Source: Alloascoidea hylecoeti (Eukaryota). Taken from it: DNA of 64,000 bases. The stretch spans positions 248,001 through 312,000 of the forward strand of contig BCKZ01000007.1 in NCBI GenBank assembly GCA_001600815.1, written 5' to 3'. A model generated the notes under the pieces. The model was given only the letters and a program-made list of their open reading frames with translations, was not told the origin of the DNA and did no database searches. Positions within the stretch are counted from its first letter, which is position 1. Each line of letters starts with the position of its first letter. Below, piece after piece: positions 51,068 to 51,648 of this stretch. The translations under genes were made by a program, and so were the position numbers.

Positions 51068-51648
51068 ATGGCTCCACAACTACCAGATGTTAAGAAGGTA
51101 AGTACTCTATTATTGTTTTGAATATTGAATTTGATCAATTCTTGTTCTCATTTACTAACAACTTCTCGAACTGATATTGTTATTTGGCTAGTGTTTTTTT
51201 GGTTTAAGAACCGCCAAAATACTATCCATAGAACAATACATTTGTTTTATCTTGTTCTTCAATAATAGTATATGGACAAGAAATTATCCATCCAATTAAA
51301 TGGTTCTAGGAAAGTGATAGGTGTACTCCGAGGATATGATGTAAGTAAAAAGTAACAAATGCAAAATAAGATACTTTTCAAATAAACTAATTGGCCAGCC
51401 CTTTTTAAATCTCGTTGTTGATGAAGCGGTGGAGGATAAACCGAGTGGTGAAAAGGTTAATATTGGAACAATTGTGAGTTCTCTTTTTGATGTGATGTTT
51501 TGGGTAATTATGATCAAACGTCTAATATAAGGTCAAAATAGGTTATTCGAGGGAATTCAGTGGTAATGATTGAAGTATGTCTTTTTTTATATTTAATTCT
51601 CTTATAAACATTTACTAACATATTCATTAGGCACTTGAGCGTATTTAA
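51068..51648 (+). CDS. SMX2: snRNP Sm core protein G, 75 aa; exons 51068-51097, 51269-51340, 51399-51473, 51542-51574, 51631-51648
   Basis: Spliced product MAPQLPDVKK|YMDKKLSIQLNGSRKVIGVLRGYD|PFLNLVVDEAVEDKPSGEKVNIGTI|VIRGNSVVMIE|ALERI* is a canonical SmG. It has four phase-0 GT-AG introns. Confidence 0.95.

Follow-up and report, generated by a model that had tools for sequence, protein, structure and literature searches.

How is a productive 3' splice site selected when it lies 110 nt beyond the branch point and three other AGs stand in between? This question is raised by the first intron of a gene for the core spliceosome subunit SmG that is present in the window, that is, in the whole 64,000-nt stretch of Alloascoidea hylecoeti DNA analyzed here (contig BCKZ01000007.1, positions 248,001 to 312,000; GC content about 30%). 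The answer that we favor is that a hairpin positioned after the branch point and before the acceptor probably serves as a constitutive distant-branch-point stem which, judged from its predicted fold and by analogy with other yeast introns, would shorten the spacer, shield the wrong AGs and leave the true AG usable. Published studies are cited by their PMC numbers.

The SmG Gene and Its First Intron

The SmG gene (51068-51648, forward strand) comprises five exons, separated by four introns of 171, 58, 68, and 56 nt, and its protein product is 75 residues long. Exon 1 (51068-51097) provides 10 codons and is followed by the phase 0 intron 1 (51098-51268), whose removal is needed to join this exon in frame to exon 2 (51269-51340), a segment that on its own retrieves SmG chains as the top matches in the PDB (nine best, E 4e-8 to 4e-5). 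Further downstream follow intron 2 (51341-51398), exon 3 (51399-51473) with motifs shared by the orthologues, intron 3 (51474-51541), exon 4 (51542-51574), intron 4 (51575-51630), and exon 5 (51631-51648), whose stop codon closes the 75-residue frame. An intron is found at the codon boundary of intron 1 in 21 of the 23 orthologous loci described below, intron 2 has counterparts at the same position in orthologues, and introns 3 and 4 recur in locus L001 and in loci L001 and L018, respectively. Hence, each of the four introns has a positional counterpart in one or more of the orthologous loci, a result that lends support to the gene model and to the requirement for the AG at 51267-51268. Conservation of intron positions is usual among Sm genes (PMC2650416).

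Intron 1 starts with the 5' splice site GTAAGT (51098-51103) and contains a TACTAAC branch point (51153-51159; with its branch A at 51158, 55 nt downstream of the donor), assigned from sequence, a pyrimidine-rich tract (51241-51260), and the productive AG (51267-51268); the positions that the first-pass annotation had given for the donor, for TACTAAC and for the four AGs all proved correct. TACTAAC had been regarded as the sole clear branch point. A pattern scan revealed no CURAY or YURAY motif between 51175 and 51268, but a second, weaker branch-point-like motif is present at 51169-51175 (CTGAT at 51171-51175), at the foot of the hairpin. From branch A 51158 to the last G of the productive AG the distance amounts to 110 nt, while it spans 8 to 36 nt in 11 other introns of the window, so that the spacer of intron 1 is an outlier in the way that had been claimed for it. 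These 11 introns were retained, by sequence, from 37 + 11 candidate rows, since they join open frames consistent with coding for SmG, importin, GGT, VTC, GDPD, or velvet proteins. Their branch A-to-AG distances are 8, 16, and 12 nt for SmG introns 2 to 4, 21, 12, 19, and 36 nt (read by hand) for the velvet gene, and 26, 9 or 27, 12, and 19 nt for the remaining ones. When three metatranscriptomes from the same study were compared with 50400-60000, ten short pieces were recovered (34-42 nt); they showed several differences and contained no joints, so that the organism was not detected in these data.

Some features of the introns and of their surroundings deserve mention in their own right. The two halves of intron 1 (51110-51165 and 51175-51268) share short words, with TATTGTT near the start of each and TCTTGTTCT occurring once before the branch point and once before the acceptor; these common words hint at an origin of the long spacer by internal duplication. 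Near the end of SmG intron 3 (at 51529-51541), an AAG is located 6 nt past the branch A and 10 nt before the productive AG; its use would shift the frame, and it presumably lies too near the branch A to be used. Head-to-head with SmG, a gene on the reverse strand (49570-50982) shows a weak match to CENP-P (E 0.003, below the Pfam cut-off); the two ATGs are about 120 nt apart, and the genes likely share a promoter. No frame of at least 65 codons is listed for the ~1.6 kb between 51650 and 53300, a region with several fairly stable AT-rich folds on the reverse strand (near 52150, 52590, and 52880) that may contain a small intron-split gene or an RNA. The velvet-domain gene (37687-40785, reverse strand) has at least four introns, and its 3' exon encodes a Ser-Lys repeat and a poly-Ser run.

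Predicted Fold of the Spacer

The minimum-energy fold of the segment downstream of the branch point (51160-51268) reaches -22.8 kcal/mol (z -3.6) and is equalled by none of 200 shuffles; the folding check returned exactly those helices that the first-pass annotation had drawn by inspection. They form a 24-bp hairpin (51175-51238) with an outer helix (51175-51181 paired with 51232-51238) and a core (51185-51228; 3 + 9 + 5 bp, UAAG loop), and the pairing can be extended to 51167/51244. On its own, the 69-nt segment 51172-51240 folds at -20.8 kcal/mol, an energy attained by a single one of the 7,681 69-nt windows with a GC content of 0.33 or less, namely the hairpin's own, and by 46 of the 12,722 such windows of any GC content. 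The core was identical in every fold that we computed. As for the outer helix (TATTGTT/AACAATA), it forms as had been proposed when only the part following the branch point is folded (probability 0.89), but its probability drops to 0.01 in the whole naked intron, in which competing pairs prevail.

Collapsing the fold brings the acceptor much closer to the branch point. The fold at 60°C leaves an effective distance of 41 nt and the extended fold, by hand count, one of 32 nt; collapsing 51175-51238 alone results in 46 nt. These values bear out the earlier estimate of about 40 nt. Measured against the features of known distant-branch-point introns, the spacer following the sequence-assigned branch point is 110 nt long where more than 50-60 nt are required, a stable stem is predicted in the stretch from branch point to acceptor, and the effective distance of 32-46 nt falls within the 55-nt limit cited for Saccharomyces cerevisiae by Gahura et al., 2011 (PMC3239191).

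Accessibility of the Competing AGs

Each of the three intervening AGs would lead to a premature stop, as had been noted from the reading frames. The TAG at 51190-51191, which is paired in the core, shifts the frame and results in a stop at 51297-51299 after 45 residues; the AAG at 51207-51208, located in the 4-nt hairpin loop, is in frame and is followed by a TAA at 51263-51265 (stop after 28 residues); and the TAG at 51230-51231, situated in an internal loop, shifts the frame and results in a stop at 51307-51309 after 35 residues. Retention of intron 1 gives a stop after 17 residues. However, all 98 of the 98 hypothetical acceptor positions in the spacer are unproductive, so that the 'poison' character of the three AGs is uninformative.

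We calculated accessibility with the branch point and the eight following bases held unpaired, a published convention (PMC10711555), and with 20 nt of exon 2 included. Opening the five bases around each AG (37°C) costs 8.4, 1.9, and 3.8 kcal/mol for the three cryptic sites in their order along the intron and 0.2 kcal/mol for the true AG; for the latter, 279 of 300 flank shuffles gave a cost as high or higher. The intervening AGs are hence less accessible than the true AG, a result that depends on the folded window: with 10 nt of exon 2 and the branch point free, the true AG is paired (0.87 at 37°C), and with 20 nt it is nearly free. The proposal that the hairpin hides all three AGs stands insofar as all of them lie within the stem and AG 51190-51191 is paired, but the other two sit in loops and cost just 2-4 kcal/mol to expose; the pairing probability is 0.00 for AG 51207-51208 and 0.24/0.11 for AG 51230-51231 in its 3 × 3 internal loop (37°C). 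AG 51230-51231 appears to be the likeliest leak site.

SmG Introns of Other Fungi

A degenerate exon 2 pattern yielded 23 metagenome loci, all of them from distant relatives; three (L001, L011, and L012) can be assigned to the Candida albicans group by a neighboring gene, and the rest are fungal. After removal of L017 and L020, which are intronless at this position, and of the repeats L011, L012, L013, L014, and L022, 16 distinct orthologous introns were available for comparison. Their lengths range from 36 to 95 nt, the distance from the best branch motif (assigned by rule) to the AG is 5-24 nt, and in none of the 16, distant relatives throughout, is structure predicted after the branch motif. 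A BLASTN comparison of intron 1 with the 23 loci gave no matches at E ≤ 1. Searches aimed at closer relatives ended similarly: a protein search for SmG, run with the natural frame 51345-51527, returned no close-relative candidates, the protein clusters of two window proteins have just two near-identical members each, and the search of genome contigs gave no matches. For the gamma-glutamyltransferase encoded in the window, the best relatives are found among the Saccharomycotina (Babjeviella, Nadsonia, Blastobotrys) at 56-57% identity. Since the orthologous introns are short and unstructured, the long spacer would be a lineage-specific addition to an old intron.

Two peculiarities were seen among these loci. 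The best branch motif in SmG intron 1 of L004, L008, and L013 is CTAAA, in which the position following the branch A is occupied by A in place of a pyrimidine; the motif lies 8 nt ahead of an AAG acceptor. The intronless SmG genes of L017 and L020 stem from an organism with 65% GC and carry an insertion between the two Sm motifs.

A Constitutive Stem as the Favored Explanation

Our data at this locus consist of the sequence, its reading frames and predicted folds, from which we infer that the assigned branch point is used, that the spacer folds in the cell, and that this folding influences which acceptor is chosen. According to the favored explanation, U2 would bind TACTAAC and the first splicing step would follow; the 110-nt spacer is computed to fold into the hairpin, optionally out to its extended form, and the folded spacer would place the true AG within the effective distance given above. 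The stem would bury the first cryptic AG in a helix and keep the other two in loops, and the second step would then pick the SmG-frame AG, as folding and the experiments on COF1, UBC13, and Schizosaccharomyces pombe introns suggest. Selection would act on the pairing and not on the sequence, the U-tract of the 5' arm being merely the partner of the A-rich 3' arm, and an ancient short intron would have been lengthened in this lineage by a spacer that was tolerated because it can fold. Any leak would go first to AG 51230-51231, whose sole protection is the AU-rich outer helix, and would give rise to a premature-stop transcript.

Competing Explanations

The first-pass annotation had gone further and proposed that surplus Sm proteins bind a G/U tract in the 5' arm of the core helix (51191-51202), thereby opening the stem and redirecting splicing to an acceptor that leads to a premature stop. 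In favor of such a feedback, the host gene itself encodes an Sm protein, and precedents for its separate parts exist: Sm rings are able to load on mRNAs (PMC12359035), snRNA Sm sites may start out paired (PMC10584915), and the human SNRPB gene autoregulates via a stop-carrying exon (PMC10087933). The tract itself fits poorly. The Sm consensus is PuAU4-6GPu (PMC3792478), of which intron 1 contains no match; the tract lacks the A of this consensus and has seven U residues, so that the likeness to an Sm site seen earlier does not hold. The permissive pattern AUNU(U/G)UN (PMC12359035) does not match the tract either; its sole occurrence in the intron is at 51240, and with 942 matches in the window it is at chance level. 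A looser purine-U4-7-G-purine pattern has 147 occurrences in the window (a density of about 0.2 per 171 nt) and is found in one of the 16 orthologous introns, while the exact string G-U7-GG, a pattern picked after it had been seen, occurs once in 128 kb (both strands). Bound Sm sites are single-stranded (PMC10584915), whereas the tract is about 0.8 paired, costs 9.2-9.3 kcal/mol to open (37°C), and does not have the arrangement of a single-stranded site with a 3' stem-loop. The opening of a paired Sm site by a helicase is described as conserved in animals, not fungi (PMC10584915), and Sm association with mRNAs has been attributed to snRNPs (PMC4053861). In addition, the conservation that would mark autoregulatory unproductive splicing is missing, with the long spacer and its stem absent from all 16 orthologous introns (all from distant relatives), and an unproductive outcome was unavoidable at any of the 98 spacer positions. 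Taken together, these findings speak against the idea that excess Sm protein opens the stem, and we consider this feedback very improbable. Heat had been named as the other trigger, and a related proposal is a switch dependent on heat or kinetics, in which either a closed fold, made possible by AU-rich repeats, hides the branch point and the true AG or AG 51230-51231 is exposed by fraying of the outer helix, so that SmG output is cut under stress. The whole naked intron does fold at -37.1 kcal/mol (z -5.1) with the same core, the branch point pairing with 51177-51182 and 51107-51115 pairing over the true AG. This fold is equalled by just 5 of 500 flank shuffles when the core is kept and by 15 of 500 when the full hairpin is kept; all 9 nt of segment 51107-51115 are perfectly complementary to the final 9 nt of the intron, a property of only 53 of 20,000 shuffles that was, however, spotted post hoc. 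Heat-sensitive splicing has been observed for some structured spacers of the intron-rich S. pombe (PMC9508853) and after weakening of the UBC13 stem (PMC3239191). Against the switch, freeing all three splice signals costs an ordinary 7.0 kcal/mol (shuffles 7.6 ± 1.9, 87 of 150 as high; 3.3-10.2 kcal/mol in six other introns), the feature is unconserved in the 16 orthologous introns of distant relatives, and in silico folds of the part following the branch point keep the core (pairing at least 0.99) and the outer helix (0.86-0.90) closed from 20 to 50°C, which speaks against an opening by heat. A 3' splice-site RNA thermosensor was reportedly described by Meyer and colleagues in 2011 for the yeast APE2 intron. 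The stem of that thermosensor is likewise reported to follow the branch point and to govern AG choice, but the SmG core shows no predicted melting between 20 and 50°C, and the SmG alternatives are all unproductive. A stress-dependent switch of this kind therefore strikes us as quite unlikely. Only slightly more far-fetched is a clade-specific splicing brake, in which the repeated AU-rich arms would provide both a competent hairpin and a closed fold concealing the branch point and the true AG, and surplus Sm protein or stress would lead to retention or to use of AG 51230-51231 with subsequent decay, a structure-based feedback on the supply of the snRNP core.

Two further explanations deny the hairpin its main role as a bridge. 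In one of them, the true AG is set early by the pyrimidine tract and by acceptor-binding factors (U2AF-type recognition, assisted by factors of the Sde2/Cactin/Tls1 type), and the hairpin is a tolerated palindrome of little help. The pyrimidine-rich stretch at 51241-51260 directly precedes the AG, the organism has many introns, whose branch points vary, and in S. pombe the protein factors Sde2, Cactin, and Tls1 aid branch-point-distant splicing (PMC9508853). Yet in S. pombe a spacing of at least 30 nt is itself rare (about 40 of 5,250 introns; PMC9508853), the 110 nt found here exceed it by far, and the strongest AT-rich fold of the window falls exactly within the spacer; this explanation thus appears unlikely, if less so than the others. 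The second holds that the intron hosts a small RNA, such as an H/ACA-like guide ending with the ACA at 51238-51240, or that it is removed in two steps, the hairpin not being mainly a spacer. H/ACA RNAs have an H box between two hairpins and an ACA tail, and C/D RNAs have C and D boxes flanking their guides. The ACA does directly follow the hairpin, and the intron is highly structured, but no ANANNA box lies between two possible hairpins (none before 51216), no C/D pair surrounds the stem, and Rfam gave no match near threshold (three hits, E at least 1.2); we rejected both snoRNA classes. One degenerate C-like motif and one D motif, 39 nt apart, are found upstream of the stem, and a 9-nt segment (51182-51190) looked complementary to large-subunit rRNA, a match that we take to be at chance level. 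In stwintrons, removal of an inner intron rebuilds a splice signal of the outer intron (PMC7138796). Of 34 inner donor/acceptor pairs in intron 1 none is credible; no donor follows an inner AG, and the three pairs whose removal forms a new branch-like motif need non-consensus inner donors. Micro-exons of 0, 3, 6, and 9 nt and AT-AC inner introns were rejected as well. Neither the window nor the 23 loci contain another copy of the intron. A mobile-element origin was likewise rejected, as no second copy exists in the window and the terminal 9-nt inverted repeat leaves no viable intron outside. We attach next to no weight to a small RNA or to two-step removal.

Relation to Known Distant-Branch-Point Introns

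The constitutive stem, the explanation that we favor, belongs to a kind of structure already known from other yeast introns, and the SmG case is new as an instance; on every computable feature, the predicted hairpin fits the distant-branch-point stem class. Should it act in this way, structure-assisted acceptor choice would extend to an intron-rich, early-diverging budding yeast with otherwise short spacers, and the 171-nt intron with its three decoy AGs would offer a compact natural test case, a useful but expected finding. Control of the fold by Sm proteins or stress would be of far greater importance, as feedback through an SmG intron is absent from the literature that we searched, but our evidence does not lean in this direction. 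In that search, which covered few subscription papers, neither a hairpin in an SmG intron nor Sm feedback in fungi came up. Human SNRPB, the gene for SmB/B' (PMC10087933), resembles the gene studied here as an Sm-protein gene with an unproductive splicing option; it uses an alternative exon, whereas SmG gives no sign of regulation and its feature is absent from the examined orthologues.

The premise of the first-pass annotation that stems located after the branch point and ahead of the 3' splice site mask AGs in yeast introns has experimental backing elsewhere: disrupting and compensatory changes revealed that the stems of COF1 and UBC13 shorten the spacer and mask AGs, and all Saccharomycotina spacers longer than 60 nt that were checked were folded, and beyond the genus no conservation of spacer length was seen (PMC3239191). 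As in COF1 and UBC13, the SmG intron combines a long spacer, a stem built of an inner and an outer helix, cryptic HAG sites enclosed by the fold, and an effective distance below ~55 nt with a spacer that is unconserved beyond close relatives (PMC3239191). It differs from these two in that its host is intron-rich and early-diverging and has otherwise short introns, in that the gene encodes a core spliceosome subunit, and in that the fold was computed and not probed. Of 88 S. cerevisiae introns probed in vivo, 21 have downstream stems that occlude cryptic acceptors (PMC12350175); these are mostly the long introns of ribosomal-protein genes, while the SmG intron measures 171 nt and its stem fills most of the 3' half. 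The branch-point-distant introns of S. pombe offer a further parallel, since there, too, the yeast is intron-rich, the usual spacing is short, and a structured spacer bridges the gap (PMC9508853); compared with the 39-nt spacer of S. pombe rap1 (PMC9508853), however, the 110-nt spacer of SmG intron 1 is much longer.
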